The notes: a model not told the origin generated them from the sequence alone. Positions 6,352 to 45,910 are shown, numbered from the stretch's first letter. The stretch is DNA of 64,000 bases from Chthoniobacterales bacterium (GCA_038240025.1 JBBSED010000005.1:95134-159133), one strand, 5' to 3'. A program made the numbers and translations.

Positions 6352-7041
6352 ATGATCGCGCCGAGACACATCCTGGGAACCTTCGACGAAGCCCTCGCGA
6401 CCCTGCGCAACAACGTCCTCATGATGACGAGCCTCGCGACTCGCAGCCTCGAGAACGCGCTCAACGGGCTCGTGCAACGGGACGACGACCTTTGCGCGAC
6501 AGCGATCGCGGACGACGAGGAAGTCGATCAGCTCGAGAAGCAGGTCGACAAGGACGGGATCGATCTGCTGCTCCGTTTCCAGCCGGTCGCGTCCGATCTG
6601 CGCCGGGTGGTTTCGGCGATGAAGCTCTGTTCCAACCTCGAGCGCATGGCGGACCAGGGCGTCAACATCGCGCGCAAAGCGCGGAAGCTGAACCGGCATC
6701 CGGTTTTGCCCGAAGTCGCGTTGATCGATCCGATGCGCGAACACGCGATGGCGATGTTCAAGGACAGCGCCGATGCCTTCGTGCGCGAGGACATCGAGCT
6801 CGGGCGCGGGCTGAAGGCGCGCGATAAGGCGCTCGATGAAATGAACGCAAACGCGAGCCGGAAGTTGATCGAGCGGATGGCGCAGGACCCGGAACAACTG
6901 CGCGGCTATCTAAATTTGATGTTCATCGCGCGGCATCTCGAGCGGGTCGGCGATCACGCGACAAACATCGCGGAAGACGCCGTCTACGCGGCCGCGGCGG
7001 AAGACATCCGGCACCAGCCCTACGTGCCGGCGGAAGCCTAA
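6352..7041 (+). CDS. phoU: Phosphate signalling complex protein PhoU
   Basis: Two PhoU repeats; stop codon TAA lies inside a GCCTAACGA motif copy. Confidence 0.8.
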   Translation: MIAPRHILGTFDEALATLRNNVLMMTSLATRSLENALNGLVQRDDDLCATAIADDEEVDQLEKQVDKDGIDLLLRFQPVASDLRRVVSAMKLCSNLERMADQGVNIARKARKLNRHPVLPEVALIDPMREHAMAMFKDSADAFVREDIELGRGLKARDKALDEMNANASRKLIERMAQDPEQLRGYLNLMFIARHLERVGDHATNIAEDAVYAAAAEDIRHQPYVPAEA

Positions 7042-7072
7042 CGAGTCGCGCGAATTCGGAAGTCCGGGGAGC

Positions 7073-7095
7073 ACAGGCCGCTGGCCTGTTGTTCG
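7073..7095 (+). terminator. Putative weak intrinsic terminator after phoU
   Basis: Hairpin ACAGGCC-gct-GGCCTGT followed by TGTTC. Confidence 0.35.
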
Positions 7096-7307
7096 AGGCG
7101 GCTCGCCTCGGACCCTGGGAGCCCAACGAAGCAAAGGCCGCACGTCGCTCCACCAGTTGCTCTTCGAGCAAACTGCAGCCGGCGAGCCACCGGCTGCGCC
7201 AGCCCACGGCCATGTGCACCCCGGCAGAAGAGGCCAGCAGGGCGCCGGTGCGTTTTTCCGCTTGGCCGGCCGTTTGATTTCGGCTAACCGCAGGACGACA
7301 TCGCCTT

Positions 7308-7946
7308 ATGCTCTCGCTCAAGAAACTCCTCGGCCACGACGAAAAATTCTACGACCTGCTCGAGGCGAGCGCGCAGCAGGCCGATAGCAGCGTCCATCAC
7401 CTCGTCGCTCTGCTCGCGAAGCTGGAGCAGCACGATTCCCCGCAGAGCCTCGAGGAATTCGTCCATAGCCGGCGGAAGGATAAAAAAATCACGCAGGAGC
7501 TGACCGAGCAGCTTTGCAAAACTTTCATCACCCCGCTCGAGCGGGAAGACATCCAGGCGCTCGCGGCCGCGCTTTATAAGATCCCGAAGACGGTCGAGAA
7601 AATCGGCGAACGCATCCTGATCTGCCCGAACGATCTCCACGGGCGGAATTTCGAGAAGCATTTGCAGCTCCTCGACCAGGCCGCGGAAGCGGTCCTCGCG
7701 ATGGTGAAAGAACTCCGCAACGGCACCGACGTCGCGACCGCGCGCGAGATGAACGCCCGCCTCCAGACGATCGAAGGCGACGCCGACAAGCTGGAGTTGA
7801 CCCTGCTGCGCGATCTCTATCACGGCGATTACGACGCCAAGCAGATCATCTTTTTGCGCGATCTCTATGAGTTGCTGGAGAAGGTGATCGATCGTTGCCG
7901 CGACGCCGGCAACATCATTCTCCAGATCGTGCTCAAGTATTCCTGA
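7308..7946 (+). CDS. DUF47/TIGR00153 family protein (PhoU-like accessory of Pit transporters)
   Basis: Family-typical helical protein immediately upstream of pitA. Confidence 0.7.
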   Translation: MLSLKKLLGHDEKFYDLLEASAQQADSSVHHLVALLAKLEQHDSPQSLEEFVHSRRKDKKITQELTEQLCKTFITPLEREDIQALAAALYKIPKTVEKIGERILICPNDLHGRNFEKHLQLLDQAAEAVLAMVKELRNGTDVATAREMNARLQTIEGDADKLELTLLRDLYHGDYDAKQIIFLRDLYELLEKVIDRCRDAGNIILQIVLKYS

Positions 7947-7966
7947 TTCGTTAGGCGAGGACGCGC

Positions 7967-9001
7967 ATGACGCTCTTTTTTCTCGTCGTCCTCGCGGCCG
8001 TCGCCTTCGAATACATCAACGGTTTTCACGACGCGGCGAACGCGATCGCGACCGTCGTCTCGACCAAGGTCCTGACCCCGCGGCAGGCAATCGCGCTCGC
8101 CGCTTTCTTTAATTTAACCGGCGCGCTCATGGGCACCGCGGTCGCGACCACGATCGGGAAAGGGATCGTCGACCTGAAAGTCGTGACCATGCGCACGATC
8201 CTTTGCGCGCTCCTCGGCGCGATCATCTGGAACCTCGCGACCTGGCTGCTCGGGTTGCCGTCGAGCTCGAGCCACGCCCTCATCGGCGGGCTCTGCGGGG
8301 CGGCGCTTGCGGCCTCCGGCGGAGATTTCTCGGTCCTGAAATGGTCGAGCGGGATTCTGCCGAAGGTAGTGATCCCGATGCTCACGTCGCCGATTGCCGG
8401 GTTCCTTTTCGGCGGGCTCCTGATGCTGCTGCTCCTGGTGATTCTACAGTCTTACACTCCCCATTTCGTGCACCGGATTTTCGGAAAATTGCAACTCGTG
8501 AGCGCGGCCTGGATGGCCCACAGCCACGGCACGAACGACGCGCAGAAAACAATGGGCATCATCGCCCTCGCGCTCTATACCGGCACGACCAACGGCGCTT
8601 TCGCGCATCTCCCGCCCGCGCTGCATTTTTTGAACACGCCGGTCTTCGCGGTTCCCAAATGGGTCGTGTTTCTTTGCGCGACGACGATGGCGGCGGGCAC
8701 CGCCGCGGGCGGCTGGCGGATTATTCGCACGTTAGGCCACAAGATGGTGAAGCTGCAGCCGGTGCATGGTTTCGCCGCGGAGACGACCGCGGCGGTGATC
8801 ATTCAGGTCGCGAGCTCTTACGGCATTCCGCTTTCCACCACCCATGTCATTTCCACCTCGATCATGGGCGTTGGCGCAGTGAAACGTTTCAGCGGCGTGA
8901 AGTGGGGCGTCGTGCAACGGATCGTCTGGGCGTGGGTTTTCACCCTGCCGGTAACGGCGCTGACCAGTTACCTGCTGGCGCGAATCTGGAGTTGGTTTTG
9001 A
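7967..9001 (+). CDS. pitA: Inorganic phosphate transporter, PiT family
   Basis: N-terminal GFHDAANAIATVV and internal repeat with HGTNDAQKTMGII. Confidence 0.85.
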   Translation: MTLFFLVVLAAVAFEYINGFHDAANAIATVVSTKVLTPRQAIALAAFFNLTGALMGTAVATTIGKGIVDLKVVTMRTILCALLGAIIWNLATWLLGLPSSSSHALIGGLCGAALAASGGDFSVLKWSSGILPKVVIPMLTSPIAGFLFGGLLMLLLLVILQSYTPHFVHRIFGKLQLVSAAWMAHSHGTNDAQKTMGIIALALYTGTTNGAFAHLPPALHFLNTPVFAVPKWVVFLCATTMAAGTAAGGWRIIRTLGHKMVKLQPVHGFAAETTAAVIIQVASSYGIPLSTTHVISTSIMGVGAVKRFSGVKWGVVQRIVWAWVFTLPVTALTSYLLARIWSWF

Positions 9002-9456
9002 AGCTTTATTTCCTGCGCCATGGGCGGGCGGATTGGCCCGACTGGAAAGGCGCGGATGACGATCGGCCGCTGACCAAAGCGGGCCGGAAAGAGGTGCGGG
9101 CGGTCGCCCGGCTTCTCGTTAGGCTGAAAGTGCGGCCGGATCTGATCCTGACCAGCCCGCTCCCCCGCGCGGCGCAGACCGCGGAGATCGCGGCGGCGGA
9201 GCTGAAAGTGAAATGCCGCGAGGAGAAATTGCTCGCGCCGGATTTCGATCTCGCGCGCTGGCGCCGGGTGGAGAAAAAGCATCCGGGCAAATGCCTGCTC
9301 CTGGTCGGGCACGAAGAGGATTTCTCGCGGTTGATCGCCAGCCTCACGAGCGGCCGGGTCAAGCTCGCGAAAGCCGGGGTCGCGCTGGTGGAACTCGAGT
9401 CGCCCGCGCGCGGCCGGCTCTGCTGGCTTTTCCCGCCGAAAGTCGCAACGGCCTAA
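8998..9456 (+). CDS. sixA: Phosphohistidine phosphatase SixA-like (histidine phosphatase superfamily)
   Basis: LYFLRHGRADW (RHG catalytic motif) ... LLVGHEEDFS; probable TTG start at 8998 overlapping the pitA stop, start uncertain; stop TAA lies inside the motif. Confidence 0.6.
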   Translation: MKLYFLRHGRADWPDWKGADDDRPLTKAGRKEVRAVARLLVRLKVRPDLILTSPLPRAAQTAEIAAAELKVKCREEKLLAPDFDLARWRRVEKKHPGKCLLLVGHEEDFSRLIASLTSGRVKLAKAGVALVELESPARGRLCWLFPPKVATA

Positions 9457-9474
9457 CGAGAACCTTCGTTAGGC
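9451..9474. repeat. Perfect inverted pair of the abundant 9-mer: GCCTAACGA-gaacct-TCGTTAGGC
   Basis: 9-bp arms with a 6-nt loop directly at the sixA stop; no downstream U-tract. Confidence 0.8.
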
Positions 9475-9488
9475 GTAGCGCGCGTCCC

Positions 9489-9959
9489 GTGAAAGCAGGC
9501 ACTGATAATTCCTTCAAAGCATCGCCGGCGGTTGTTCGCCGCGCGCAGCGCATCGATGCTCCAGCGGCTGTCGAGTTGTTGGCTGCTCTCGGTTATCCGT
9601 CGCCAGTCGCGCGCGTTGAGCGGAGCATCGCAGATAGCGCCGCTTCTACCGACACGGCCGTTTTCGTTGCGGCCGCGTCCATGCGCATCGTGGGCATCAT
9701 TTCTGTTCATCGTATTCCGCTTTTTCACGCTCTCGGTTTTCTTGGCCGCATCACGAGTCTCGTGGTCACCGCCGACTATCGGCAGCGCGGGATCGGTGGC
9801 TCGTTGGTTGCCGCAGCCGAGGAGTTCGCTTGGGCGCACGGCTGCATCGGCGTCGAAGTCACTAGCGGTGACCATCGTCCAGAGGCCCACGCTTTTTACG
9901 AGCACCTTGGTTACAAGCTCGATGCTCGACGCTTCATCAAACATGACCGCCACGCCTAG
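9489..9959 (+). CDS. GNAT family N-acetyltransferase
   Basis: C-terminal QRGIGGSLVAAAEEFAWAHGC...AHAFYEHLGYK acetyl-CoA binding fold; GTG start at 9489 chosen to avoid overlap with sixA. Confidence 0.6.
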   Translation: MKAGTDNSFKASPAVVRRAQRIDAPAAVELLAALGYPSPVARVERSIADSAASTDTAVFVAAASMRIVGIISVHRIPLFHALGFLGRITSLVVTADYRQRGIGGSLVAAAEEFAWAHGCIGVEVTSGDHRPEAHAFYEHLGYKLDARRFIKHDRHA

Positions 9960-10070
9960 GCATGCGATGCAGCCAACCCCTGGCCGGCGTACGCTCAAGA
10001 TTGCCATGACTCTAACCGCTCCTCCCGCCACCACGCGCGCCCTCTTCAGCGGTGGCGGATCTTGTTCTCG

Positions 10071-10754: not shown

Positions 10755-10761
10755 ATCGCGC

Positions 10762-11619
10762 TCAACCGAATCGGCCGGTGATGTAGTCTTCCGTCTTGCG
10801 TTCCCGAGGCGAACTGAAAATCTGCGCGGTCTCGCCGTACTCGATCAATTCGCCGACATAGAGGAAGGCGGTTTTATCCGAGACGCGGCTGGCCTGCTGC
10901 ATGTTGTGGGTCACGATCACGATCGTGTATCGGGTGCGCAACTCGCGGATGAGCTCCTCGACGCGCGCGGTCGCGATCGGATCGAGGGCGCTGCACGGTT
11001 CGTCCATGAGGAGCACTTCGGGCTCGACCGCGATCGCGCGCGCGATGCAGAGGCGCTGCTGTTGGCCGCCGGAAATGCTCGTGCCCGGTTTCTTGAGATC
11101 GTTCTTCACCTCGTCCCAGAGTGCGGCCATGCGGAGCGATTTCTCGAGGCGCTCGTTCAGGATGTGGCGGTCGCGCACGCCATTGAGGCGCAGACCAACG
11201 AGGACGTTTTCCTCGATCGACATGGTCGGGAACGGATTCGATTTTTGAAAGACCATCCCGATGCGCCGCCGGGCCATCGCCGGATCGGCGTCGGGGCGAT
11301 AAAGATTTTCGCCCTGGAAAAGTATCTGGCCCTCGATCCGCGTCTTCGGCACGAGCTCGTGCATGCGGTTGAGACAACGGAGGAAGGTCGATTTGCCGCA
11401 GCCGCTCGGCCCGATGATCGCGGTCACGGTCTGCGCCGGAATGTTGATCGAGATGTTGTTGATCGCCTGCTTTTGGCCGTACCAGATCGAGAGATTTTTG
11501 ACTTCGAAAGCGGGCGTCTCCGTGGGCGTCGCGGGTGTCGCGGGCGGGGCGGCGGGTGCGTCCGTGATTTCGCTACGGGGTGAAGAAGGTGTCGGTGGTG
11601 ACATCGTGCGAGCTGACAT
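10762..11619 (-). CDS. pstB: Phosphate ABC transporter ATP-binding protein
   Basis: Walker [13 protein letters not shown] signature; start moved to the ATG at 11619, immediately after the pstA stop. Confidence 0.85.
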
Positions 11620-11623
11620 TTCG

Positions 11624-12484
11624 TTAGGTGACGCGAGCGCCGCGGTCGCGGGTGAGGAAGCGGACCAAAATATTAATGACGAAGATTCCCACCACAAGAA
11701 CGAGCGCGCCCGCCCAGGCCTGGCGGTGCCAATCTTCATACGGCGAAATCGCGTAAGAGAAAATCTGGAGCGGGAGCGCGGCGATCGGCTCGGCCAGGTT
11801 GCGATTCCAAAAGCGATTGCCGAACGCGGTGAAAAGGAGTGGCGCGGTCTCGCCCGCGATCCGCGCGACGGCGAGGAGAATGCCGGTGACGATGCCCTTG
11901 GACGCGGTCTTCATCACGATGTGGACGATCGTGCGCCAACGGCTGATCCCGAGCGCGAGCGAAGCTTCGCGGTAGCCGTTCGGCACGAGCAGGAGCACCT
12001 CTTCGGTCGTGCGCATGATCAGCGGGATCATCATGAACCCGAGCGCGAGTCCGCCCGCGTAGGCGGAGAAGCTTTTGAAAGTGATCACGACCAGGCCGTA
12101 GACGACCACGCCCCAGGTGATCGAGGGGACGCCGTTCAAAATGTCGGCGACGAAGCGCAGCCACCAGTTACTCGAAGTGGTGCCGTACTCGGCGAGGTGA
12201 ACGCCTCCGAGGACCCCGATCGGAATGCCGATGGCCGCGGCCAGCCCGAGCAACTCGAGCGTGCCGACGATCGCGTTGGCCATGCCGCCGCCGAGTTCGC
12301 CGACGGGTTTCGGGAGCTGAGTGAAGAAGTTCAGATTGACCGAGCCGGCGCCTTTTTGGAGCAGGTAGAAAAAGACGAGCGCGAGCGGCGCGATCACGAG
12401 CAGGGCCGCGAACATGGAGAGCCCGGAAGCGAGCGCGCTTTTGATTTTGCGCCAGCGATGGGAGTCCTGCCGGGTCGCGGTCAT
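11624..12484 (-). CDS. pstA: Phosphate ABC transporter permease PstA
   Basis: Family-typical permease; stop codon lies inside a TCGTTAGGT motif copy. Confidence 0.8.
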
Positions 12485-12487
12485 TCG

Positions 12488-13474
12488 TTAGGCACCGCGG
12501 CTGGCGCGGGAGGTGTTCAGGCTGCGGAGAAAGAGTTGCCCGAGCAGGTTCGCGAGAATGGTGATGCCGAAAAGGACGAGGCCGATCTCAAAAAGCGCCT
12601 GCAAATAAAGATCGCTCGTCGCCTCGGTGAACTCGTTCGCGATCACGCTCGCGAGGGTGTAGCCGGGCTTGAAAAGAGAAGCGGCGATCTGTGGCGTATT
12701 GCCGATCACCATTGTGACCGCCATCGTCTCGCCAAGCGCGCGGCCGAGCCCGAGAATGACCGCACCGAAGAGGCCGCGCTTGGCGTAGCTGAGGACCGCG
12801 ATACGGGTCACTTCCCAGCGGGTCGCGCCGAGGGCGTAGGCAGCTTCCCGCTGGAGGTTCGGCACACTGCGCAGGATCTCGCGCGAGACCGAGGTGATGA
12901 TCGGCAGGATCATGATCGCGATGATGATGCCGCCCGCGAGCATGCAGACGCCGTAGATCGGTCCGGTAAAAAGCCCGGTCCAGGCAAAGTATTTCTTGAG
13001 CCAGGGAAACGGGTAGTCCCGCAACCACGGGATCATGACGAAGATGCCCCAGAGACCGAGGATAACGCTCGGGATCGCTGCGAGCATTTCGATCAGCGAA
13101 GTGAGCGGCTGGCGAATCCAGAGCGGCGCGAGCTCGGTGAGATAAACCGCGGTCGCGATGCTCAACGGCACGGCGATGACGAGCGCGATGAGCGAGGAAA
13201 CAACGGTCCCGTAGATGAACGGGAGCGCGCCGAACTGTTCGGCGACCGGATCCCAGGTCGAAGTCCCGAGGAAGTTGAAGCCGAATTTTTTGATCGAAAG
13301 AAACGAGCCGGCGGCGAGTTGCCAGCCGACCAGGAAAACCAGGACGACGACCGCGAGCGCCATCCCGAGGGTGAGCCATTCAAACGCTCGATCCGCGAAG
13401 CGCGAAGGCGGAGGCAACTCGACCCGACGGCGCGCCTGCGGGAGCGCGGCGGGCATCGGTGCGACGACTGGCAT
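12488..13474 (-). CDS. pstC: Phosphate ABC transporter permease PstC
   Basis: Family-typical permease; stop codon lies inside a TCGTTAGGC motif copy. Confidence 0.8.
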   Translation of the reverse strand: MPVVAPMPAALPQARRRVELPPPSRFADRAFEWLTLGMALAVVVLVFLVGWQLAAGSFLSIKKFGFNFLGTSTWDPVAEQFGALPFIYGTVVSSLIALVIAVPLSIATAVYLTELAPLWIRQPLTSLIEMLAAIPSVILGLWGIFVMIPWLRDYPFPWLKKYFAWTGLFTGPIYGVCMLAGGIIIAIMILPIITSVSREILRSVPNLQREAAYALGATRWEVTRIAVLSYAKRGLFGAVILGLGRALGETMAVTMVIGNTPQIAASLFKPGYTLASVIANEFTEATSDLYLQALFEIGLVLFGITILANLLGQLFLRSLNTSRASRGA

Positions 13475-17853: not shown

Positions 17854-18296
17854 ACAAACAAAAGGTCCTCTTCATCTGCATCCACAACAGCGCGCGCAGC
17901 CAAATGGCGGAAGCGTGGTTGAACCATATCTGCGGAGATTATTTCGAAGCCCAAAGCGCCGGCCTCGAGCCCGGAGTAATGAATCCGCTGGTGGTCGAAG
18001 CGATGCACGAAGTGGGGATCGATCTTTCGCAGAAGCGGACCCAAGGGGTCTTTGACGTCTGGAAATCCGGGCAACTCTTTGCCTACGTCGTTACCGTCTG
18101 CGACGAATCGAGTGCGGAGGGTTGTCCCATCTTTCCGGGTCACGGCAAGAAACTTCACTGGGGATTTCCCGATCCCTCCGCGCTCACCGGCAGCCGCGAG
18201 GAAAAGCTGGCGAGGATGCGCGAAATCCGCGACGACATCCGGCGGAAAGTCGAGTCGTGGTGCGACGAAGTCTGCGCCCGGCCTGCTTCTGCCTAA
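17850..18296 (+). CDS. arsC: Arsenate reductase, LMW-PTP type
   Basis: CIHNSARSQMAE P-loop; stop TAA lies inside the motif. Confidence 0.75.
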   Translation: MNKQKVLFICIHNSARSQMAEAWLNHICGDYFEAQSAGLEPGVMNPLVVEAMHEVGIDLSQKRTQGVFDVWKSGQLFAYVVTVCDESSAEGCPIFPGHGKKLHWGFPDPSALTGSREEKLARMREIRDDIRRKVESWCDEVCARPASA

Positions 18297-18305
18297 CGAA
18301 CCCGC

Positions 18306-23688: not shown

Positions 23689-24768
23689 ATGGCGGACGTG
23701 GAAACAAAGGGGGTCGAAAGCCGCGTCGTTTTCTCCAGTGGGGAAGACGCGTTCACGGTCCGCGATCTCATCGATGCCGCGCATTTCCGCGGCGAAGTGG
23801 CGCCGCTCTGGCGCGATCTCCTGCGCCTCGTCGCGGCGGAGGAAAAGGCGGACGCGCGCGAGCTCGAGATCGAAGACTCCGCGATCGACTCCGCGGCGGA
23901 ACAGTTTCGTTATCAGCACGACCTGATCACGGCGGAAGAAACGGAGCGCTGGCTGAGCGAACGCGGTCTCACCCTCGGAGATTTCGGGGCCTATTTCGTG
24001 CGCCATCATTGGGGCGAGACGGCGGAGGAAAGCGCGGCCGCGGCGGAGGATTATCTCGAAGCCTCCGCGGAAATGCGCGAGCTGCTCACGCTGGAATTGA
24101 TTCTGAACGGCGAGATCGAGCGCATGGCCGGCCGCTCGAGTTGGCGCGTCGCGGCGCGGCGCGCAGAGGGCGGCGGTGACGTCGCCGATGAATTGCTCAA
24201 CGCGGAGAAGGGCCGTTTCCTCGAGCGGAACGAACTGCCGCACGAGCAGGTGCCGGAATGGCTGGGCAAGCTTGAGCGCGATCACGCCTGGCTGCGCGAA
24301 CAGCTTGCGACCGAGGCGGTTTACCAGCGCACCACCGACGCGCTCCTCACCCGCGAAGCGCGCGCCCACGAAGTCTCGGCGCTCCGGTTGCCGCTCACGC
24401 TTTTCGAGGTCGAGACGATCGAGTTTGATTCGCTCGACGCCGCGCGCGAGGCGCTCCTCTGCGTGCGCACGGATGGCATGGAGATGCAGGCCGTGGCCGA
24501 GGAAGGCCGCTATCCCTACCGGCACGCGGAGATTTTGCTGGAGGATGTCCCGGAAGATTTGCAGCAGAAATTCCTCAGCGTCACGCCCGGCAGCGTGCTC
24601 GAACCGATCACTCGCGGCGATGGTTTCCACCTCTGCCGGATCATCGCCAAGGCGGAGCCAAACGTGGACGACCCGATCGTGAAAACCCGGGCGGAGGAGC
24701 GCATCCTCGATCGGCATTTCGGCGAGCTCTGCGCCCAGCACGTGCAATGGAAAAATCTTCTCCCCTAA
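23689..24768 (+). CDS. Hypothetical acidic protein, possibly with a C-terminal parvulin-like fold; first gene of the peptide-export operon
   Basis: Stop 4 nt before the peptidase-ABC start; family not recognised; stop TAA lies inside a motif variant. Confidence 0.3.
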   Translation: MADVETKGVESRVVFSSGEDAFTVRDLIDAAHFRGEVAPLWRDLLRLVAAEEKADARELEIEDSAIDSAAEQFRYQHDLITAEETERWLSERGLTLGDFGAYFVRHHWGETAEESAAAAEDYLEASAEMRELLTLELILNGEIERMAGRSSWRVAARRAEGGGDVADELLNAEKGRFLERNELPHEQVPEWLGKLERDHAWLREQLATEAVYQRTTDALLTREARAHEVSALRLPLTLFEVETIEFDSLDAAREALLCVRTDGMEMQAVAEEGRYPYRHAEILLEDVPEDLQQKFLSVTPGSVLEPITRGDGFHLCRIIAKAEPNVDDPIVKTRAEERILDRHFGELCAQHVQWKNLLP

Positions 24769-24772
24769 CGAA

Positions 24773-27700: not shown

Positions 27701-27883
27701 CTCGGACGTTTGACCGCCGGCCGGACCACGATCGTGATCGCGCACCGCCTGAGCACGATCCGCGAAGCCGACGCCATCGTCGTTCTGGAAAAAGGCTCCG
27801 TCGCCGAGGTCGGCAACCATGACCAGCTGATGGCGCAGCGCGGTCTCTATTTCTACCTCAGCAGCCAGCAGCTGGGGATTTAA
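24773..27883 (+). CDS. Peptide-export ABC transporter: two N-terminal cNMP-binding domains + C39 double-glycine peptidase + permease + ATPase
   Basis: cNMP phosphate-binding cassettes (FGEAALAEGGTRNATV, FGELSILKGTPRSASV), C39 catalytic Cys (MDCGAASLGMI) and His (EGNHWMVLYD), 6 TM helices, Walker A GRSGCGKTT, signature LSGGQKQR. Confidence 0.8.
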   Translation: MKATDDTLLRRAALFQFLSDDHFEQLRALLHEEHYEFGDIIVRQGEPADAFYILLSGRARVVKADQNGTEVVLASVKPGDSFGEAALAEGGTRNATVRCSTGVEALRLDRADFLQVVEENPELKQHLEITARHRALHGFLYQFSNFGRLPVPALRSLIEKLRPVEVAKGRAIIQQGDAPGAMFILEKGRARAFAQNNGSTKNLAFYRDGDFFGELSILKGTPRSASVEAFSDCRLLALEPAAVRDLKKNYPEFGQLMEERLAQYEAKTEARVPLDFDTEMLPAASTTHDKVALDENAAKRSDDATAPFAEEGGLFRKSKKRIRKIEAIEQIDEMDCGAASLGMICRHFGRKVSLSRIRQLCHTSTDGTSLKALCRAATELGLAARALKVSLRNLNVMPLPAIIHWEGNHWMVLYDVQPAFVKVADPARGLRKIPRKEFEQNWSGYAALFDYTTAFESAPESKASFAWMWPFLAKFKVIFAQVMLLAVAITVLELLFPIFTEMVVDKVIVEKDVGLLKIILLGMGAALFFVTAASLAQEFLLSFAAVRLDTAILDFLSRQMLSLPMTYFTTRRTGDIQRRLDGARQVRQFAVQHGIGAILALVQLAGALGLMVIYSPSLMFAFLATTPLYLGLMYFSQKVLRPLFAGVEESQGKYSSHQIDAIKGIEAVKAAAAESVFRDMMLNEFLSVSKKLFRSSFIVMTYDSVMQSIGMISTAVFLWVGANQVMNGALSIGGFVAFSSLTAMAYSGIMRTLGVWDNLQFATVLLNRLNDVFEQEPEQGRDRSRLTPVHSLEGRIELKNVSFKYGGPEAPNILANVTLDLAPGKMVAFVGRSGCGKTTLIKLIAGLLEPTEGTILFDHVDLKTLNYRDVRRHIGMVLQENHIFNESIARNIAFGDAEPDLDRVLVAAQAAAAHDFIMRLPMGYETKIGESGLSLSGGQKQRVAIARAIYNNPPVLIFDEATSALDTESERAIQDNLGRLTAGRTTIVIAHRLSTIREADAIVVLEKGSVAEVGNHDQLMAQRGLYFYLSSQQLGI

Positions 27884-27897
27884 CCTTCCGCCTAACG

Positions 27898-29079
27898 ATG
27901 CCTAACGAACTCATGCAGCCAGGGTCGATCGACAAGGAATCGGAGATGCTCCCGCAGGATCCACCGCCCTGGTTCGTCCGCTCGGCCGCGTGGCTCATGG
28001 TCTCGATGTTCGGGGTCGCGCTCCTCGCCTCGGTGCTGGTGAAGCTGCCGGAAACGGTCAGTTGTCCCTTCGTGCTCACCTCGGCTTCGGGCGCCGATCC
28101 GATTCAATCGCCCCGCCTCGCCGTCGTGGACAAGGTCTGCGTCACCGAAGGGCAAACCGTCCGCAAGGCCGCGCCGCTCTTCCTCCTCCGCTCCGATGAG
28201 ATCCGTGGCATGGACACGGATCAACGCACCCTCACCGAAGATCTCCACACGCACGAGGAAGGCTTGGCGAAAGCAGACGCGGCTTTCGCGGCGCAGCTCG
28301 AGATCAAGACCGCCGAGATCGCGCAGGCGGAAAGCGAAGTCGGCTTCCGCGAAAAGCATTCCGCCACCAGCCGCGACCTCGTCGAGCGGATGAACAAGTT
28401 GACCAAAAACGGCGGCATCTCCAAGGTCGAAGTGCTCCGTTATCAACTCGAATCGGCTGAATCCGACAAGGACCTGAGCGTCGCGCAACGGACCGTGCAG
28501 CAGGTCGGCCTCGAGCTCACGCAGCTCAAGAATGAACACGCCCGCGCGCACGACGAAAACGTGGCCGAGATCGAAAAACTGAAGGTCCGCCTGAGCGCGC
28601 TGCGGGGAGACTTGGAAAATTCTAAACAAAATGTCCTCACCGTCCGAGCGCCCTACGACGCCGTGGTCATCTCGCTCGCGCAGCGCAACGCGGGGAGCGT
28701 GGTCCAAAACGGCCAGGAGCTTTGCCAGCTTTCCGCGACCGATTCGAAACCGCGTGCCCGCCTCGTGGTCGGCGAAGCGGGACTTCCAAAACTGGCGAGT
28801 GGCCAGACCGTGCGCCTTTTCTTCGACGCGTTCCCCTACCAGCGCTACGGCGTCGTCTCCGCTAAGCTGGACTGGATTAGTCCCGCGGCGGTCGCCTCCA
28901 CGGACGGGCCGCAGTTCATCGGGCTCGCCTCGCTCGATGCCAGCTCCGCGGGCCGGCGTCGTCCGCTCGCCGTGCGCGTTGGCATGACGGGCGAAGCGCG
29001 CATCGTGGTCGGCCAGCGCACGATCATGGAATACGCTTTCGAGCCAATCCGCCAGTTGCGCGAGAACGTGCGCGACTAA
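27898..29079 (+). CDS. HlyD-family secretion (membrane fusion) protein
   Basis: N-terminal TM, long coiled-coil, C-terminal beta domain; start ATGCCTAACGA overlaps two motif copies. Confidence 0.7.
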   Translation: MPNELMQPGSIDKESEMLPQDPPPWFVRSAAWLMVSMFGVALLASVLVKLPETVSCPFVLTSASGADPIQSPRLAVVDKVCVTEGQTVRKAAPLFLLRSDEIRGMDTDQRTLTEDLHTHEEGLAKADAAFAAQLEIKTAEIAQAESEVGFREKHSATSRDLVERMNKLTKNGGISKVEVLRYQLESAESDKDLSVAQRTVQQVGLELTQLKNEHARAHDENVAEIEKLKVRLSALRGDLENSKQNVLTVRAPYDAVVISLAQRNAGSVVQNGQELCQLSATDSKPRARLVVGEAGLPKLASGQTVRLFFDAFPYQRYGVVSAKLDWISPAAVASTDGPQFIGLASLDASSAGRRRPLAVRVGMTGEARIVVGQRTIMEYAFEPIRQLRENVRD

Positions 29080-29088
29080 CCAGCCGCC

Positions 29089-30087
29089 ATGCTGCGCCCG
29101 CTTTCCAAGCTCAAGATCGAGGACATCGCGACCACGAACCCCGCGATGGCGCGCTGCCTGAAGCTCGCGCAACTCGCCGCCACTTCCGACGTGCCGGTCG
29201 TCTTGTTAGGCGAAACTGGGACCGGCAAAACCCTGCTGGCCCACGCGATCCACAATTCCTCCGGTCGCGCCGAGCGCCCGTTCGTCGCCTTCAACGCCTC
29301 CGCGATGAGCGACACCTTGATCGAGAGCCAGCTCTTCGGGCATGAGCGCGGCGCCTTCACCGGCGCGCAAACGACCGTGAAAGGGAAATTCGAGCTCGCC
29401 AGCCAGGGCACGCTTTTCCTCGACGAAATCGCGGACATGAGCCCGCTCGCGCAGGTAAAGATCCTGCGCGTGCTCGAGTACGGCGAATTCGAGCGCGTCG
29501 GCTCCGAGCACATGCTCACCTGCGACGTGCGGATCATCTGCGCGACCAACTGTTCGCTGCGCGACCGCGTGCGCCAGGGCAAATTCCGCGAAGACCTCTA
29601 CCATCGCTTGAACGGACTCACCCTGCTCATCCCTTCCCTGCGCGACCGGAGCGAAGAGCTCCCCGCGCTCATCGCCGCCGAGCTGCGTGCGTCCGCCCGG
29701 AACGAGGGGAAAAAGATCACCGCCATTCATCCCGCGGCGATGGGCAAGCTGCTCACCTACGATTGGCCGGGCAACCTGCGCGAGCTCAATCACACCGTGC
29801 GCACGATGACGCTCTTCTGCGATGGGCGCGTCATTCTTCCCGAGCACGTCGTTTTTCCCCCGGATTTGCAAACCAGCGAACCTGAACCGCTCCCCGCCGT
29901 CGCTCCTGCGCCGGACGAAAACGGCAGCGAACCGCCCCCCGATGATTTTTCCCTTGCCACCGCGCTAGCGCGTCACGTCGCCTCGGTCTATGAACAGACG
30001 GGACGGAACCAGCGCCAGACCGCGCGCCGGCTGGGCATCTCCCGCGCCACGCTCGCCCGGCACCTGCGAAAGATGAGTCAAAAGTGA
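29089..30087 (+). CDS. Sigma-54-dependent transcriptional activator (AAA+ and HTH domains only, no receiver)
   Basis: Walker A GETGTGKT, GAFTGA, ELPALI... and C-terminal Fis-type HTH (RRLGISRATL). Confidence 0.8.
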   Translation: MLRPLSKLKIEDIATTNPAMARCLKLAQLAATSDVPVVLLGETGTGKTLLAHAIHNSSGRAERPFVAFNASAMSDTLIESQLFGHERGAFTGAQTTVKGKFELASQGTLFLDEIADMSPLAQVKILRVLEYGEFERVGSEHMLTCDVRIICATNCSLRDRVRQGKFREDLYHRLNGLTLLIPSLRDRSEELPALIAAELRASARNEGKKITAIHPAAMGKLLTYDWPGNLRELNHTVRTMTLFCDGRVILPEHVVFPPDLQTSEPEPLPAVAPAPDENGSEPPPDDFSLATALARHVASVYEQTGRNQRQTARRLGISRATLARHLRKMSQK

Positions 30088-35823: not shown

Positions 35824-35837
35824 GGTAAATTTTCCGC

Positions 35838-37061
35838 CTAACGAAGCGCCTCGATGCAGTCGGTGAGCTCGCGCAGGAAGGGCTCGATGTCGGTGACGAG
35901 GCCGATCGCCTGGAAGGTTCCGCGATCGGCCAGCTTCGTCACCACGCCCGGGTTGATATCGACGCAGATCGTTTTCACGCTCGCCGGCAGGAGGTTTCCG
36001 ACGGCGATCGAATGCAGCATCGTGCCCATCATCATCGCGATCGTGACCCCCTCGAGTTTCGCGCGCATCGCCCGCTGGGCCTCGAGCGCATCGGTGATCA
36101 CGTCCGGCAGCGGCCCATCGTCGCGGATGGAGCCGGCGAGGACAAAGTCGACGCCGTTCTTCACGCAGGAATACATGATCCCGCTCTTGAGCAGCCCGTT
36201 TTTCACCGCGGGCCGGATGCCGCCGACATTGCGAATCGCGTTGATCGCGCGCATGTGATTTTCGTGGCCGGACTCGGCCAGCGAACCCTTCTCCAGGAAG
36301 ACGCCTAACGACGTCCCGAAAAGCGCGTTCTCGATGTCGTGCGCGGCGAGCGCGTTGCCGGCGAAGAGCAGGTTCACATAGCCCCAGTCGATCAGTTTCT
36401 CGAAATGCTCCGCCGCGCCGGTATGGACGATCGCGGGGCCGCCAACGACGAGGATTTTGCCCTTCTCCTGCCGGGCGCGATGAAATTCCTGCGCCATCCC
36501 GCGGATCACGGCCGTCTTCGGCTTCTCGATCGAGACGTTGCTCGCCATGAACTCAAACGCGTCGGTGCGGGAAGTGGAACGTTGGAGCGGGATCACTCGG
36601 ATGCCCTGGTGGCCGACGACTACTTCCTGGCCTTTTTTTACACCGTAAAATTTCGTCGAGGTCGCGGTCTTCGCGGCCCGGTCGATCACGATCGCGCTGT
36701 CCATCAGCGCGGGCTGCACCTCGACTTCGCCGTCGTCGATACGGGCGAAAGTCTGCTGATTCGTGGTCACGTAAAAGTGCTCAGGAAAGACTCCGTCGGC
36801 GGGCGCCGCCGCCAGTTGGACGCTTTTCTTTTCCAGGACCTCCGCGCCGTGCTGGCGCAGCCGGAGGATCAGATCGTCGAGCTCGTCGGCCGAGGGACCG
36901 GTGACCTCGATGCGCGCAAAGCTCTGGTCGGCACGGGCTTCGCCGATGCGGATCTCGCCGATCTTGAAGGTGCCGCCGTGGGTGATGATCTCGTCGAGAA
37001 CCTTCGGCAGAATCAGGGAATCAATAATGTGGCCGCGCAGCTCGATCGTCTCGGAAAGCAT
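35838..37061 (-). CDS. LOR/SDH-like (TIGR00300 family) protein, ornithine cyclodeaminase-like domain as in AgrE/ArgZ C-termini
   Basis: Family-typical N-terminus MLSETIELRGHIIDSLILPKVLDEI; start taken at that internal Met; stop TAG lies inside the motif. Confidence 0.5.
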   Translation of the reverse strand: MLSETIELRGHIIDSLILPKVLDEIITHGGTFKIGEIRIGEARADQSFARIEVTGPSADELDDLILRLRQHGAEVLEKKSVQLAAAPADGVFPEHFYVTTNQQTFARIDDGEVEVQPALMDSAIVIDRAAKTATSTKFYGVKKGQEVVVGHQGIRVIPLQRSTSRTDAFEFMASNVSIEKPKTAVIRGMAQEFHRARQEKGKILVVGGPAIVHTGAAEHFEKLIDWGYVNLLFAGNALAAHDIENALFGTSLGVFLEKGSLAESGHENHMRAINAIRNVGGIRPAVKNGLLKSGIMYSCVKNGVDFVLAGSIRDDGPLPDVITDALEAQRAMRAKLEGVTIAMMMGTMLHSIAVGNLLPASVKTICVDINPGVVTKLADRGTFQAIGLVTDIEPFLRELTDCIEALR

Positions 37062-38756: not shown

Positions 38757-38788
38757 GGCACCAGATCACTTTTATCCTGCACTTACAC

Positions 38789-39190: not shown

Positions 39191-39215
39191 CGGAGGTGTA
39201 AGTGTAGGTGTAGGA

Positions 39216-40995: not shown

Positions 40996-40999
40996 CGGG

Positions 41000-41920: not shown

Positions 41921-42044
41921 CGCCCTGTAGTCGCTTCGCTGTGCGAAGCGTGAGATGGACGTTCAAATACGGCTTCCCCGGCCACCGCCCCGATGCCCGC
42001 GTTTCCCACAGGGAAACGTCTACAGGTCCAGTTCATCACTTCGC

Positions 42045-43262
42045 CTACGGCGCGATCGTTTCGACAAAATGGAATTTCCCGTCCTTGATCGTCAGCACCT
42101 TGGCCGACTTGGTCGCGTTCCGCTGTTCGTTGATCGTGATCGTGCCGGTGACGCCTTCGTAGTTCTTCGTCGCCGCGATCGCGTCGCGGAGCTTTTGCGG
42201 GTCGGTGCTCCCGGCGCGCTTCATGGCGTCGAGTAAAACCGCCGCGCCATCGTAACCGAGCGCCGCCATGGCGTCGGGATCCTTCTTAAACCGCGCCCGA
42301 TAATCTTTCACGAAACCCTGCACGATCGGCGAGGTGTCGTCGGTCGAGAAGTGGTTGGAGAAATAATCGCCTTCGATCGCCGCCCCGCCGATCTGGGTGA
42401 GCGTCGGTGAATCCCAGCCGTCGCCGCCCATCAGCGGCACGGTGATCCCGAGCTCATGCGACTGGCGCGCGATCAGGCCAACTTCGTTGTAATAACCGGG
42501 CACGAAAATCGCCTCCGGGTTGGAGCTCTTGATCGAGGTGAGCTGCGCCTTGAAATCCTGATCGCCCGAGCTGTAGCTCTGTTCCGCCACAACCGTGCCG
42601 CCATGGCTGGTGAAGTAAGCCTTATAAGCCGCCGCCAGGCCGACGCTGTAATCTTGCCGCACGTCGATCAGGACCGCGACCTTGGTTTTCTTGAGCGTGT
42701 TGAGGGTAAACTTCGCCATCACTTCGCCCTGGAAGGGATCGATGAAGCAGACCCGGAAAATGTAATCGCCGACCTGCGTGACTCTCAGGTTGGTCGAGCC
42801 CGGCGAGATCATCGGGATCTTGCTCTGCTGCGCGATCGGCGCGGCCTCGAGCGTGCGCGAGGAAGCGATTTCGCCTAACAATGCCACGACTTGGTCGCGC
42901 GACATCAATTTGCGCACCGCGGTGGCGGCTTCGCCCGGCTTCGATTGGTCGTCCTCGGTGATGAGATTGATCTTTTTCCCGAGCACGCCGCCGCTGGCGT
43001 TGGCTTTTTCCACGACCAGCGTGGTCCCGTTGTGCGCCGCCGTGCCGAAGCTCGCGGTCAGGCCGGTGAGGCAGGCATATTCGCCCACCGCGATGGAGTC
43101 GCCGCTCGCGCCCCCTCCGCCTTTGCCGCAACCGGCGAGGAGAAGAGCCGCGCCTAACGACAGCGCGCCCGCTCGCCTAACGAATGAAAGAGACCCGGCG
43201 AAAGAAGAACGGAGTGACATAATCGGTTCGCTCCGAATACGGGCTGGCGCGAGGCGAATCAA
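42045..43262 (-). CDS. Branched-chain amino acid ABC transporter substrate-binding lipoprotein (LivK/LivJ-like)
   Basis: Lipoprotein signal (LLAGC) and periplasmic binding protein type I fold. Confidence 0.75.
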   Translation of the reverse strand: MIRLAPARIRSEPIMSLRSSFAGSLSFVRRAGALSLGAALLLAGCGKGGGGASGDSIAVGEYACLTGLTASFGTAAHNGTTLVVEKANASGGVLGKKINLITEDDQSKPGEAATAVRKLMSRDQVVALLGEIASSRTLEAAPIAQQSKIPMISPGSTNLRVTQVGDYIFRVCFIDPFQGEVMAKFTLNTLKKTKVAVLIDVRQDYSVGLAAAYKAYFTSHGGTVVAEQSYSSGDQDFKAQLTSIKSSNPEAIFVPGYYNEVGLIARQSHELGITVPLMGGDGWDSPTLTQIGGAAIEGDYFSNHFSTDDTSPIVQGFVKDYRARFKKDPDAMAALGYDGAAVLLDAMKRAGSTDPQKLRDAIAATKNYEGVTGTITINEQRNATKSAKVLTIKDGKFHFVETIAP

Positions 43263-43281
43263 GCGTTTTCGCGGAGCGGCG

Positions 43282-44265
43282 ATGGTGCTATTCTCGCGCG
43301 TGAAATCCTCCAGCGCCGGCTTTGTTCCGCGACTGCTCCAGCCGGCTCTGGCGGTTCTGCTCGCCGCCGCGTCGGCTTCGGCCGCACCGCCCGCGACGGA
43401 GGAGGCGCAGTTCCAGGCGCTCCCCCTCGAGCGCTCCCGGCAGAATCACCTGCTCGTCCACGCCCGGATCAACGGCAAACCGGCGCTCCTCGGGGTGGAC
43501 AGCGGCGCGCCGGTGAGCGCGATCTCGGTCACGCGCCGGAAACATTTCGGACTCACCGAGCTCCCCGGTTCCTCGAAGCTGCCGCCGCGGCTACGGATCA
43601 ATGGCGGCTTTAATCGGGTGGCGATCGCGCATCGGTTGCAGCTCGGCGCGCTCACGCTCGTGGACGAGCCGATGGTGGCGATCGACCTGAGCGGGCCGGC
43701 CCGTTCTTCCCGCGATTTTCACGAGCAGGAACTCGACGGCATTCTTGGCGCGGACGTTCTTTTTCCCACCCAGGCGGTGCTCGATTGCGAGAAGCAAATC
43801 CTGATCATGAAAGTGGATCCCGATATTCCGGGCACGGTGCCGGGAATTGATCACCGCGGCTGGCGCGAGGTGCCGATTCGGGTGACGAAAGGCTGGAACC
43901 TCTACGTCGACAGCAAGCTCAACGGCAAAGCCGCGCAGCTTATGATCGATACCGGCGCTTTCACGACGCTCATCCACAAGCCGTTCCTCCACGAAATGCG
44001 CCTCGCGCTGCGCGAAACGCCTTACACTTCCGGCGCGGTGAATCTCGAGGACCGCGGGTTGCAACTCGCGACCATCCGGCGTTTCTCGGTGGGTGATTTC
44101 TTGGTCAAACGCAAGGAGGTCGGGGTGATGGATCTCGAGGGGTTGATCCACGGTGATCTGCTCACCGGCGAGCCGCCGGTCGCGGGATTGTTAGGTTCAG
44201 AATTTCTCCGGCGCAATCACGGCATCATCGATTTCGGCACGCGCACGCTCTATCTGAAGTTGTAG
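43282..44265 (+). CDS. Secreted retropepsin-like (clan AA) aspartic protease with two catalytic lobes
   Basis: Signal peptide; LGVDSGAPVSAI and LMIDTGAFTTLI Asp-Thr/Ser-Gly motifs; ATG at 43282 inside the longer track ORF. Confidence 0.55.
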   Translation: MVLFSRVKSSSAGFVPRLLQPALAVLLAAASASAAPPATEEAQFQALPLERSRQNHLLVHARINGKPALLGVDSGAPVSAISVTRRKHFGLTELPGSSKLPPRLRINGGFNRVAIAHRLQLGALTLVDEPMVAIDLSGPARSSRDFHEQELDGILGADVLFPTQAVLDCEKQILIMKVDPDIPGTVPGIDHRGWREVPIRVTKGWNLYVDSKLNGKAAQLMIDTGAFTTLIHKPFLHEMRLALRETPYTSGAVNLEDRGLQLATIRRFSVGDFLVKRKEVGVMDLEGLIHGDLLTGEPPVAGLLGSEFLRRNHGIIDFGTRTLYLKL

Positions 44266-44294
44266 CCGCGCGCCCCCCGTGGCACTGGTCTGCC

Positions 44295-45026
44295 ATGAAA
44301 CGGATTCTTTTTTGCAGCCTGCTCTGTGCCCTCGGCCTAACGACTTCCCACGGTCGGGAGACCGAGAAAATTGCCGGTCAATCTAGCCCAGCCAAGGGCA
44401 CCCATGGCCTCGCCACCCCCTCGGCCGAGACCATGCCGGCAACCGCGCCCGCCGCGAAACTGGAAGAAAACGCGAAGTCAGGCGAAGCTAAGCACATGGA
44501 TAAAGATCAAAAGGAAGTGGCCGTGCTCAAAACCAGCGCGGGCGAAATGGTGGTGGAATTCTGGCCGGACGTGGCCCCGAAAACCGTGGAAAATTTCAAG
44601 AAACTCGCCAAGGAAGGCTTCTATGATGGCACGGCGTTTCATCGCATCATCAAGGGCTTCATGATCCAGGGCGGCGATCCGAACACGAAGGATCTCTCGA
44701 ACGAAGCGATGTACGGCACCGGCGGTCCGGGTTACCAAGTCGCCGCGGAATTTAACGAGCGTCCGCACGTGCGCGGCGTCCTTTCGATGGCCCGCTCGCA
44801 GGATCCGAACTCGGCCGGTAGCCAATTTTTCGTCTGCCTCGGGGTCGCGAAATCGCTCGACCGGCAATACACCGCTTTCGGTCATCTGATCAAAGGCCTC
44901 GACGTCCTCGAACGGATCGGCGACACGCCGGTGGGTCGCGGGAACGGCGGCGAAATGAGCAAGCCGGCCAGCCGGGTCACGCTCGAGAGCGTGAAGATCG
45001 TGCCGGCCGATTCGATCAAGAAATAA
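44295..45026 (+). CDS. ppiB: Cyclophilin-type peptidyl-prolyl cis-trans isomerase (secreted)
   Basis: GFYDGTAFHRIIKGFMIQGGDP core. Confidence 0.8.
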   Translation: MKRILFCSLLCALGLTTSHGRETEKIAGQSSPAKGTHGLATPSAETMPATAPAAKLEENAKSGEAKHMDKDQKEVAVLKTSAGEMVVEFWPDVAPKTVENFKKLAKEGFYDGTAFHRIIKGFMIQGGDPNTKDLSNEAMYGTGGPGYQVAAEFNERPHVRGVLSMARSQDPNSAGSQFFVCLGVAKSLDRQYTAFGHLIKGLDVLERIGDTPVGRGNGGEMSKPASRVTLESVKIVPADSIKK

Positions 45027-45910
45027 TGCCTAACGAGACGACCCGCGTCGCCGCCATCCAGATGCAATGCGGGACCGACCCGCAGGCCAACCTGGAGAAG
45101 GCGGTCGCGCGTGTCCGTGAGGCCGCGGCGCAGGGGGCGCAGATCATCTGCCTGCCGGAGCTCTTCCGTTCGCAGTACTTTTGCCAATCGGAGGACCACG
45201 CGAACTTCGAGCTCGCGGAGACGATTCCCGGGCCCTCGACCGAGTCGTTAGGCGAAGTCGCGCGCGAGACGGGCGCGGTCATCATCGCCTCGCTTTTCGA
45301 AAAGCGGACCGCCGGGCTTTATCACAACACCGCCGCGATCATCGGGACGCAGGGTGAGTTGCTCGGGCGGTATCGCAAGATGCACATCCCGGATGATCCC
45401 TCGTATTACGAGAAGTTTTATTTCACCCCGGGCGATCTTGGTTTTCTTAACTGGCCGACCCCGCACGGCAACGTCGGCGTCTGCGTCTGCTGGGATCAAT
45501 GGTACCCGGAAGCCGCCCGCCTCACGACTCTGCGCGGTGCCGAGATTCTCTTTTACCCGACCGCGATTGGCTGGCATCCGAGCGAGAAAGAGAAATACAG
45601 CTACGCCCAGCATTCCGCCTGGGAAACGATGCAGCGCAGCCACGCGATCGCGAACGGCTGCTTCGTTGTCGCGGTGAATCGCGTCGGGCTGGAGCGGCCG
45701 GTCGGCGGCGACGGGATCGAGTTCTGGGGTCAAAGCTTCATCGTCGCTCCGAGCGGCGAGATCCTGGCGAAGGCGAGCGTCGAACGCGAAGAAACGCTTT
45801 TCGCCGAGGTGGAATGGAAGCGCGTGAATGAATACCGCACGCATTGGCCCTTCCTGCGCGACCGCCGGATCGATGCCTACGCCGGAATCGAGCAGCGTCT
45901 GCTCGATTAA
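45026..45910 (+). CDS. aguB: Carbon-nitrogen hydrolase family; N-carbamoylputrescine amidase-like
   Basis: Catalytic triad context E...K...C (CVCWDQWYPE); start ATGCCTAACGA overlaps the ppiB stop and a motif copy. Confidence 0.6.
   Translation: MPNETTRVAAIQMQCGTDPQANLEKAVARVREAAAQGAQIICLPELFRSQYFCQSEDHANFELAETIPGPSTESLGEVARETGAVIIASLFEKRTAGLYHNTAAIIGTQGELLGRYRKMHIPDDPSYYEKFYFTPGDLGFLNWPTPHGNVGVCVCWDQWYPEAARLTTLRGAEILFYPTAIGWHPSEKEKYSYAQHSAWETMQRSHAIANGCFVVAVNRVGLERPVGGDGIEFWGQSFIVAPSGEILAKASVEREETLFAEVEWKRVNEYRTHWPFLRDRRIDAYAGIEQRLLD

Follow-up and report, generated by a model that had tools for sequence, protein, structure and literature searches.

A dispersed uptake-sequence-like word supplies gene ends in a Chthoniobacterales genome, probably as a by-product of settling where it is cheapest

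A 64,000-nucleotide stretch of DNA from a Chthoniobacterales bacterium (GCA_038240025.1, JBBSED010000005.1:95134-159133; hereafter 'the window', with positions counted from its first letter) carries numerous dispersed copies of a short sequence, GCCTAACGA (hereafter 'the word'), some of which contain the stop or start codons of genes. Gene content was established with a self-trained codon-usage caller, which returned 58 confident genes that together account for 83% of the window (G+C content 61.6%), nearly all of them supported by Pfam. Names proposed in an earlier note on this sequence were confirmed by Pfam for a fusion of TGT with a methyltransferase, PhoU, a SixA-like histidine phosphatase, PstA, PstC, LMWPc/ArsC, a LOR/SDH ArgZ-like protein, ThiG, HlyD and CN_hydrolase; two details of that annotation required correction, in that the gene at 24773-27883 encodes a cyclic nucleotide monophosphate (cNMP)-binding C39-peptidase ATP-binding cassette (ABC) exporter, and pstB starts at 11619. 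PstA-centred loci from 80 genomes (L001-L080) served as a comparison set and placed the window in Chthoniobacterales, phylum Verrucomicrobiota, near Candidatus Udaeobacter, the nearest relatives all being metagenome-assembled genomes.

A total of 47 exact copies of the 9-mer were found on the two strands of the window (about one per 1.3 kb), compared to 0.31 ± 0.51 expected from dinucleotide-preserving shuffles, an over-representation of about 150-fold. The 8-mer core CCTAACGA was present in 51 copies, 30 on the plus and 21 on the minus strand, and together these copies span positions 702-55861. The 9-mer is sharply bounded: its 27 one-mismatch variants sum to about 32 copies, mostly at background level. 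Across 269 distinct contexts pooled from relatives, G occupied position -1 in 76%, T was mildly enriched at -4 to -2, and A/T was enriched at +1/+2, with T at +2; beyond these weak biases the flanks were essentially random. The word differs on direct reading from its reverse complement, TCGTTAGGC, and is therefore non-palindromic, and it carries a stop triplet on each strand, TAA one way and TAG the other. The 30:21 strand ratio was obtained across a single window whose cumulative GC skew climbs monotonically, so that a weak skew is possible, and an orientation runs test on the copies was not compelling (z about -1.7). Per-base density of the word was similar in intergenic and coding DNA, with enrichment limited to the 25 nucleotides (nt) after stop codons.

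Nine stop codons of the window, equivalent to about 15% of genes and 18% of copies, lie inside a copy of the word. All nine had been listed in the earlier note; each was found at its coordinates and is a true gene end according to both the gene caller and Pfam. Seven of them use the sense register xCC-TAA-CGA (7039, 9454, 11624(-), 12488(-), 18294, 24766 and 51603) and two use the antisense register T-CGT-TAG-GC (704(-) and 35838(-)). The earlier note attributed TAA to forward and TAG to reverse copies, but the choice between the two is governed by the orientation of the copy relative to its gene: the minus-strand copies in pstA and pstC give TAA. The copy at 7036-7044 (+) provides the last codon GCC and the TAA (7039-7041) of phoU (6352-7041), the copy at 18291-18299 (+) provides GCC-TAA (18294-18296) of the LMWPc/ArsC-type gene, the orthologous stop of which reads CCA-TAA-CGA in L002, and the copy at 51600-51608 (+) provides GCC-TAA (51603-51605) of thiG, where the ThiG domain ends eight residues before the stop. 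The TAA of the SixA-like gene (9454-9456) forms part of the first arm of an inverted pair, GCCTAACGA-gaacct-TCGTTAGGC (9451-9474), the sole hairpin pair in the window. Antisense copies at 702-710 (+) and 35836-35844 (+) supply, respectively, the TAG (704-706) of the tgt-methyltransferase fusion (704-2722, minus strand) and the CGT-TAG end of the LOR/SDH ArgZ-like gene (35838-37061, minus strand).

Three of the embedded stops sit at tight operon junctions, right up against the ATG of the following gene. In pstC, a copy at 12485-12493 (-) gives GCC-TAA (12488-12490) and its CGA constitutes the entire spacer to the pstA start (TAA-CGA-ATG). Two 8-mer copies, ACC-TAA-CGA at 11621-11628 (-) with the pstA stop (11624-11626) and CCC-TAA-CGA at 24764-24771 (+) with the stop of the open reading frame (ORF) 23689-24768, are each followed by a single A and then by the ATG of pstB or of the exporter gene (24773), respectively (TAA-CGA-A-ATG in both cases). 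Pfam domains finish at least seven residues upstream of each embedded stop, so the last residue encoded by the motif falls in an unconstrained tail. Two minus-strand ORFs that would also end in a word copy (9453-9953 and 51602-51880) have low coding scores and no Pfam match, and were not counted.

Both start codons said to read ATG-CCT-AAC-GA (M-P-N-E) are likewise present. Two direct copies 10 nt apart, GCCTAACGATGCCTAACGA (27890-27908, plus strand), occupy the ABC-exporter/HlyD junction, and the second starts at the G of the HlyD ATG (27898), with an alternative ATG at codon 6; the double copy is also seen in L008. The copy at 45028-45036 (+) begins at the G of ATG 45026 of the CN_hydrolase (aguB-like) gene, which is the sole start upstream of the CN_hydrolase Pfam domain (from residue 7) and shares bases with the TAA that ends the preceding cyclophilin gene (TAATG). 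A metagenome scan for this gene gave two close relatives on contigs of 2-3 kb; its N-terminus is variable in relatives (M-ANPQTT, M-AKPDKT, MAETT), and the closest of them, L081, lacks the word at this position.

Under uniform placement of the word, 0.046 embedded stops would be expected against the nine observed (P = 2.5e-18). Crediting the bases that a stop codon already supplies lifts this expectation about 45-fold, to 2.1 (P = 4e-4), and it is this rise that speaks for pure bookkeeping, in which the TAA/TAG content of the word and its overall frequency give the embedded count without any preference for gene ends. The earlier note had proposed weighing the embedded stops against exactly this content; at the scale of the window the excess held for the sense mode (seven seen, 1.46 expected, P = 8e-4) and not for the antisense mode (two seen, 0.69 expected, P = 0.15), the latter being fully accounted for by bookkeeping. 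The same division was obtained by conditioning on the stop triplet itself. TAA stops were found within the word in 7/25 cases (28%), compared to 10/167 intergenic TAA (odds ratio (OR) 6.1, P = 0.002) and 44/581 of all other TAA (OR 4.7, P = 0.003), i.e. 6-8%, while the proportion of TAG stops within the word (2/15) did not differ significantly from that of intergenic TAG (10/141). In 11 motif-bearing relatives the corresponding figures were 14/85 TAA stops (16.5%) versus 27/556 (5%; OR 3.9), and 2/44 for TAG, with the caveat that the stops of relatives are largely orthologous and hence non-independent, which inflates the P value. Bookkeeping is thus rejected for the sense mode, and as an account of the whole pattern we consider it very improbable, all the more so because the 25 nt past stops are enriched for the word in their own right.

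In a positional profile around gene ends, copies peaked sharply at precisely the embedded register (seven copies in the window, 14 in relatives), with the neighbouring coding slots empty and no copy in the final 60 coding nt. Positions +4 to +25 after stops held seven copies, or 8.4 times the generic density (P = 3e-5), one of them the antisense copy at 7948-7956 (-) in the 20-nt spacer after the stop of gene 7308-7946. When this 3'-flank density is multiplied by what a stop codon already contributes, the expectation for embedded stops becomes 13.9 in the sense and 4.9 in the antisense register, compared to 7 and 2 observed, leaving no excess. Since embedding is at or below the prediction from the local flank, the enrichment, although real, is explained by two things together, the preference of the word for gene 3' ends and the bases already in place at any stop codon, and by nothing specific to termination. 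A clustering of internal copies near gene termini, as reported for the uptake signal sequences (USS) of Pasteurellaceae, was not found among the internal copies (Kolmogorov-Smirnov P = 0.93; 41% versus 31% within 150 nt, P = 0.17).

Comparison with relatives indicated how these stops came about. The embedded stops of phoU, sixA, pstA, pstC and arsC are displaced by at most one codon from the stop used in 40-80 relatives, and relatives without the word mostly end these five genes with TGA or TAG. In motif-poor relatives phoU ends with TGA at most one codon away, pstA has TAG or TGA at the identical codon position in relatives lacking the word, and the pstC/pstA junction of motif-poor relatives reads CAA-TAA/TAG-CG/CC-ATG, often CAA-TAA-CG-ATG, so that up to six of the nine bases pre-existed. 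These comparisons show that the embedded stops originated where genes already ended, at most one codon away, and took the place of TGA or TAG. In 41 motif-poor relatives, 8.6% of stop slots differ from the word by three mismatches or fewer, versus 1.0% of generic slots; pre-adaptation of the flanks of TAA stops (GCC before, CGA after) is small, at 1.2-1.6-fold. Stop usage in the window (25 TAA, 15 TAG, 18 TGA) is unusual for a G+C content of 55-62%, and 612 genes of motif-poor relatives show 34% TAA, 25% TAG and 41% TGA. Once the embedded stops are removed, TAA usage in the window (18/51, 35%) matches the 34% of these relatives, which implies that the word added TAA stops at the cost of TGA and TAG.

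The extent to which embedded stops are common to relatives varied by gene: pstA in five (L001, L003, L005, L008 and L070), pstC in four, phoU in two (L005 and L008, plus a one-mismatch copy in L070), 24766 in two (L008 and L070) and tgt in one (L070, where the arrangement is kept). In the latter genome a single copy (L070:20400-20410) ends two convergent genes at once, giving TAA to one and TAG to the tgt fusion with a 4-nt CTAA overlap. Internal copies were shared among species about as much as embedded stops, and three motif-rich relatives (L013, L007 and L032) carry 8-20 copies per locus with zero embedded stops.

Within genes the word was found in all four of its stop-free frames: P-N-E/D (8 copies), x-L-T-x (7), S-L-G (12) and x-V-R-x (5). 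Consequences are visible in the encoded proteins. The tripeptide PNE occurs seven times versus 1.5 expected, with six of the seven encoded by the word, and SLG occurs 19 times versus 8.4 expected, 12 of these encoded by TCG-TTA-GG, although TTA makes up merely 2.5% of Leu codons. In PstS, a PDQ kept in 46 relatives is replaced by PNE/PND at a word copy; further replacements relative to orthologs include LDR to LVR in SixA and SLA to SLG, and a synonymous overwrite of TCGCTCGGC by TCGTTAGGC was also seen. Gain and loss between close relatives took the form of clustered changes restricted to the 9-mer. A tRNA-Leu gene with anticodon UAG (3712-3794, plus strand) decodes CUA, one of the rare codons brought by the word in the x-L-T-x frame. 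A periplasmic-binding-protein gene (42045-43262, minus strand) probably starts further upstream, as its Pfam domain begins at residue 6 and leaves no room for a signal peptide; in that case two copies taken as 'intergenic', at 43153 and 43176, would belong to the part encoding its signal peptide and be read in the S-L-G and V-R frames.

These observations bear on the suggestion of the earlier note that the word is tolerated, or favoured, where translation terminates or re-initiates. Tolerance and enrichment at gene boundaries stand. A translational signal, which as part of the mRNA would aid termination or promote re-initiation or coupling and be selected at gene boundaries, would account for the spike at the exact register, for the three embedded stops that adjoin the next ATG (pstC/pstA, pstA/pstB and 24766/24773) and for the 4-6-fold excess of TAA stops that is left after conditioning on TAA. 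However, gene-internal copies have no mRNA-strand bias (15 sense, 17 antisense), 42/51 copies are located away from stop codons, and antisense copies yield the other stop, TAG, in another context and without enrichment. The excess is gone against the local 3'-flank baseline, the tight junctions already exist as TAA-CG-ATG in relatives without the word, embedded stops are conserved no better between species than internal copies, and L013, L007 and L032 are rich in the word yet do without an embedded stop. This analysis provides no evidence for a role of the word in translation termination or re-initiation, and we regard a translational signal as very unlikely.

We instead favour, with a probability of roughly 0.7, the reading that the gene-boundary pattern is a by-product of an uptake-sequence-like word settling where it is cheapest. 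Accumulation of the word would have taken place at the level of DNA, irrespective of strand and genome-wide in one Chthoniobacterales clade, in the fashion of a DNA uptake sequence. As it holds a stop on each strand, one of three frames per orientation is barred inside genes, and that register is possible only at a gene's own stop. There it may well be the cheapest of all, with the stop codon already providing part of the rare A/T core in a genome of 62% G+C; the cost of sense embedding would amount to a change of the last, unconstrained residue to Ala, Thr or Pro (xCC), the final three bases being non-coding. Gene 3' flanks are in addition generally preferred by the word. A cheap stop register together with this flank preference could lead to some 15% of genes ending in the word and, in tight operons, to copies that abut the next start. 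In the antisense register two codons are constrained, one of them the rare CGT, and the stop has to be TAG, which fits the lower use of this register.

Several observations weigh against this by-product reading. Against the base-corrected genome-wide baseline the sense/TAA mode keeps an excess of about 4-fold (P about 1e-3), which leaves room for a modest extra preference, and the sample comprises 58 genes plus non-independent relatives. No competence gene was detected by Pfam among the 58 genes, a result that covers the window only, and the literature yielded no paper linking Verrucomicrobia or Udaeobacter to uptake sequences or competence. The word also departs from known uptake sequences in two respects: 41/51 copies overlap genes compared to a coding fraction of 83%, so there is no coding depletion, and terminator-type inverted pairs are scarce, with a single pair in the window and two pairs in a total of 287 copies, while 0 of 28 terminator-like sites in 1-20 kb overlap a copy. 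The last two figures count equally against the word being a transcription terminator element at gene ends, comparable to the paired copies of DNA uptake sequences (DUS) and USS. Such a role would agree with the enriched 3' flanks and with the inverted pair directly past the SixA-like gene, which folds to a 9-10 bp hairpin; nevertheless that hairpin lacks a T-tract (dG -21.6 kcal/mol, z -1.9), and three of the embedded stops are operon-internal and immediately precede the start of another gene. We therefore view a terminator function as highly improbable.

Close pairs of copies are scarce in general (7 direct and 2 inverted among 287). Adjacent direct duplications are nonetheless seen at 27891/27901, at 53221/53234 and, as TAACG-CCTAACGA, in L070, and would be compatible with a mobile or repeated element, in which copies represent the end of a repetitive extragenic palindromic (REP) element or miniature inverted-repeat transposable element (MITE), a transposon target-site duplication or an excision footprint near gene ends. 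The duplication at 53220-53246 (+) is a 13-nt tandem repeat, CCTAACGAATCCG x2, within a gene of the alpha-amylase family that creates two copies in different frames; the pair at 27890-27908, with its 10-nt spacing, resembles it. Contrary to what REP or MITE sequences would show, the flanks are near-random in the 269 contexts, with no conserved sequence outside the core save the weak T bias, and the majority of copies are read in frame within conserved genes whose length has not changed. A mobile origin can hardly be upheld on this evidence.

Known dispersed words offer a yardstick. The DUS of Neisseriaceae (GCCGTCTGAA / ATGCCGTCTGAA) resemble the word in being short and non-palindromic, in occurring about once per kb in both orientations, in being clade-specific and in inflating tripeptides, an effect of the encoded word reported for both USS and DUS (PMC2817400). 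Like GCCTAACGA, DUS favour gene 3' ends and can overlap annotated starts, giving M-P-S-E where the window has M-P-N-E (PMC2817400, PMC2346458, bioRxiv 10.1101/2025.10.24.684340); the 12-mer DUS contains ATG, and about 30 ORFs of N. meningitidis (MC58) start with it (PMC2346458). Their stop, TGA, is confined to one sense frame, unlike the TAA/TAG stops on both strands seen here, and DUS are seldom if ever read in that frame (0 of 653, PMC2817400, Table 2; 'rarely seen', bioRxiv 10.1101/2025.10.24.684340), whereas 18% of the copies in the window are stop codons. The description of these boundaries as unusual even for uptake sequences is accordingly apt as to degree but not as to kind: the phenomenon is the same in kind as in DUS and much stronger. 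Moreover, DUS are strongly coding-depleted (about 35% in ORFs) and form many inverted-repeat terminators, whereas 80% of the copies studied here overlap genes and hairpins are exceptional; ComP-dependent uptake has been demonstrated for DUS, while GCCTAACGA is known here from sequence alone. Pasteurellaceae USS (AAGTGCGGT) share with the word a 9-mer core present about once per 1.2 kb in both orientations (PMC2817400). About 65% of USS lie in ORFs, in preferred frames; they roughly double encodable tripeptides and gather in tolerant positions, likewise here (PMC2817400). The USS core is stop-free in every frame and so cannot supply gene ends, and USS differ further in their AT-rich flanking motifs, frequent terminator pairs, different phylum and proven competence. 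In abundance, use of both orientations, tripeptide enrichment and clade specificity the word thus behaves as USS and DUS do.

The cyanobacterial highly iterated palindrome HIP1 (GCGATCGC) is hyper-abundant in coding and non-coding DNA alike, untied to terminators, lineage-specific and of unknown function. It is similar to GCCTAACGA in abundance and coding tolerance, but is a stop-free palindrome whereas GCCTAACGA is asymmetric. Chi and FtsK-orienting polar sequence (KOPS) words show a strong bias to one replication strand and are over-represented a few-fold. Octamers of this type are, like GCCTAACGA, short, asymmetric, over-represented and tolerated in genes, but they differ from it in strand ratio (30:21 here) and in degree, and no Chi-type site is known to come near an over-representation of about 150-fold. 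A HIP1- or Chi-like site, recognised by some abundant protein of DNA binding, repair or modification and kept up through selection or biased repair, is to be considered as another DNA-level driver, under which the boundary pattern would still be a cost-minimising by-product. The absence of coding depletion and the rarity of hairpins place the word nearer to HIP1 than to USS or DUS, and the literature holds no evidence of competence for this lineage. A gene for an orphan-looking beta-class N6/N4 DNA methyltransferase (49950-50753, minus strand) holds three copies within 800 bp, a higher density than anywhere else in the window, with no restriction gene adjoining it. Its matches, however, are to generic beta-class N6/N4 families only and all fall far below every family cut-off, with no link to the word established; the word itself is non-palindromic, unlike HIP1, its strand skew is weak under a monotonic GC skew, unlike that of Chi or KOPS, and its over-representation is well above that of known Chi-type sites. 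Such a driver is possible, though on balance we think it unlikely.

As for the driver behind the favoured by-product reading, a sequence-biased DNA process is suggested, e.g. preferential uptake followed by recombination; that it is uptake specifically is a tentative proposal to which we give somewhat less than even odds. Traits consistent with uptake and recombination are the abundance, symmetry and sharpness of the word, its effects on the proteome, its clade specificity and a motif-free, low-GC stretch at 56-60 kb. Copies are nil in the last 8 kb of the window (55862-64000; P about 0.05 for such a gap), and G+C drops to 0.55 at 56001-60000 despite the presence of core genes (plsY, mnmG/gidA and a gene for a VTT-domain protein). 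This stretch could have been imported recently from a relative of lower G+C that lacks the word, or could reflect a chimeric assembly. Literature on the word sequence itself was limited to primers and oligonucleotides, and no such word has been described in the phylum Verrucomicrobiota in the literature searched.

Among the loci compared, GCCTAACGA is the top 9-mer in the closest relatives alone (L005, L007, L008, L013, L032 and L070). A second dispersed word, (A)AGATCGACA(A), is found in other clades of the order, in either orientation and with unique flanks, at 4-11 copies per 10-20 kb; it contains a stop codon in no frame. Its carriers are L010, L012, L022 (e.g. 900-9450), L024, L033, L034, L049, L052, L053, L067 and L077, with a flank variant, AGATCGACATC, in L010. 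Separately, in the closest relative, L001:5249-6777 contains four copies of a 25-bp palindrome, CGTTCCCAAAC-nnn-GTTTGGGAACG, within 1.5 kb upstream of the pst operon, which looks like an operator or REP-like element unrelated to GCCTAACGA.

Two further regions of the window contain copies beside features of other kinds. A peptide-export cluster (23689-30087, plus strand) comprises a protein weakly matching the TIGR04500 peptide-maturation family, the C39-peptidase ABC exporter, the HlyD-type adaptor and a sigma-54 activator, and both of its internal gene junctions hold word copies. A cyclic di-AMP riboswitch (RF00379, 56.6 bits; 47322-47477, plus strand) lies upstream of a Band-7/SPFH gene (47635-48879), with an antisense copy at 47503 between aptamer and gene.

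A driven word with stop triplets on both strands finds in gene ends its cheapest landing site, and in doing so measurably reshapes stop choice, C-terminal residues, N-termini and operon junctions. For annotation this calls for caution with starts and stops made by the motif and with spurious convergent ORFs, and the pattern offers a quantitative handle on the strength of the underlying drive. The larger interest lies in the second word of sister clades and in the word itself, a USS/DUS-like signature in Chthoniobacterales, an order that includes Candidatus Udaeobacter, described as among the most dominant soil bacterial groups (PMC7343977). It is conceivable, if rather unlikely on present evidence, that this abundant, uncultured soil clade has its own sequence-specific uptake or recombination system with GCCTAACGA as its signal, while its sisters use the unrelated AGATCGACA. 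If true, these would be the first uptake-sequence 'languages' outside Proteobacteria, with a drive strong enough to rewrite about 15% of stops, shift usage to TAA and replace conserved residues, and such clade-by-clade words would open sequence-specific DNA exchange between uncultured bacteria of the soil to direct test.

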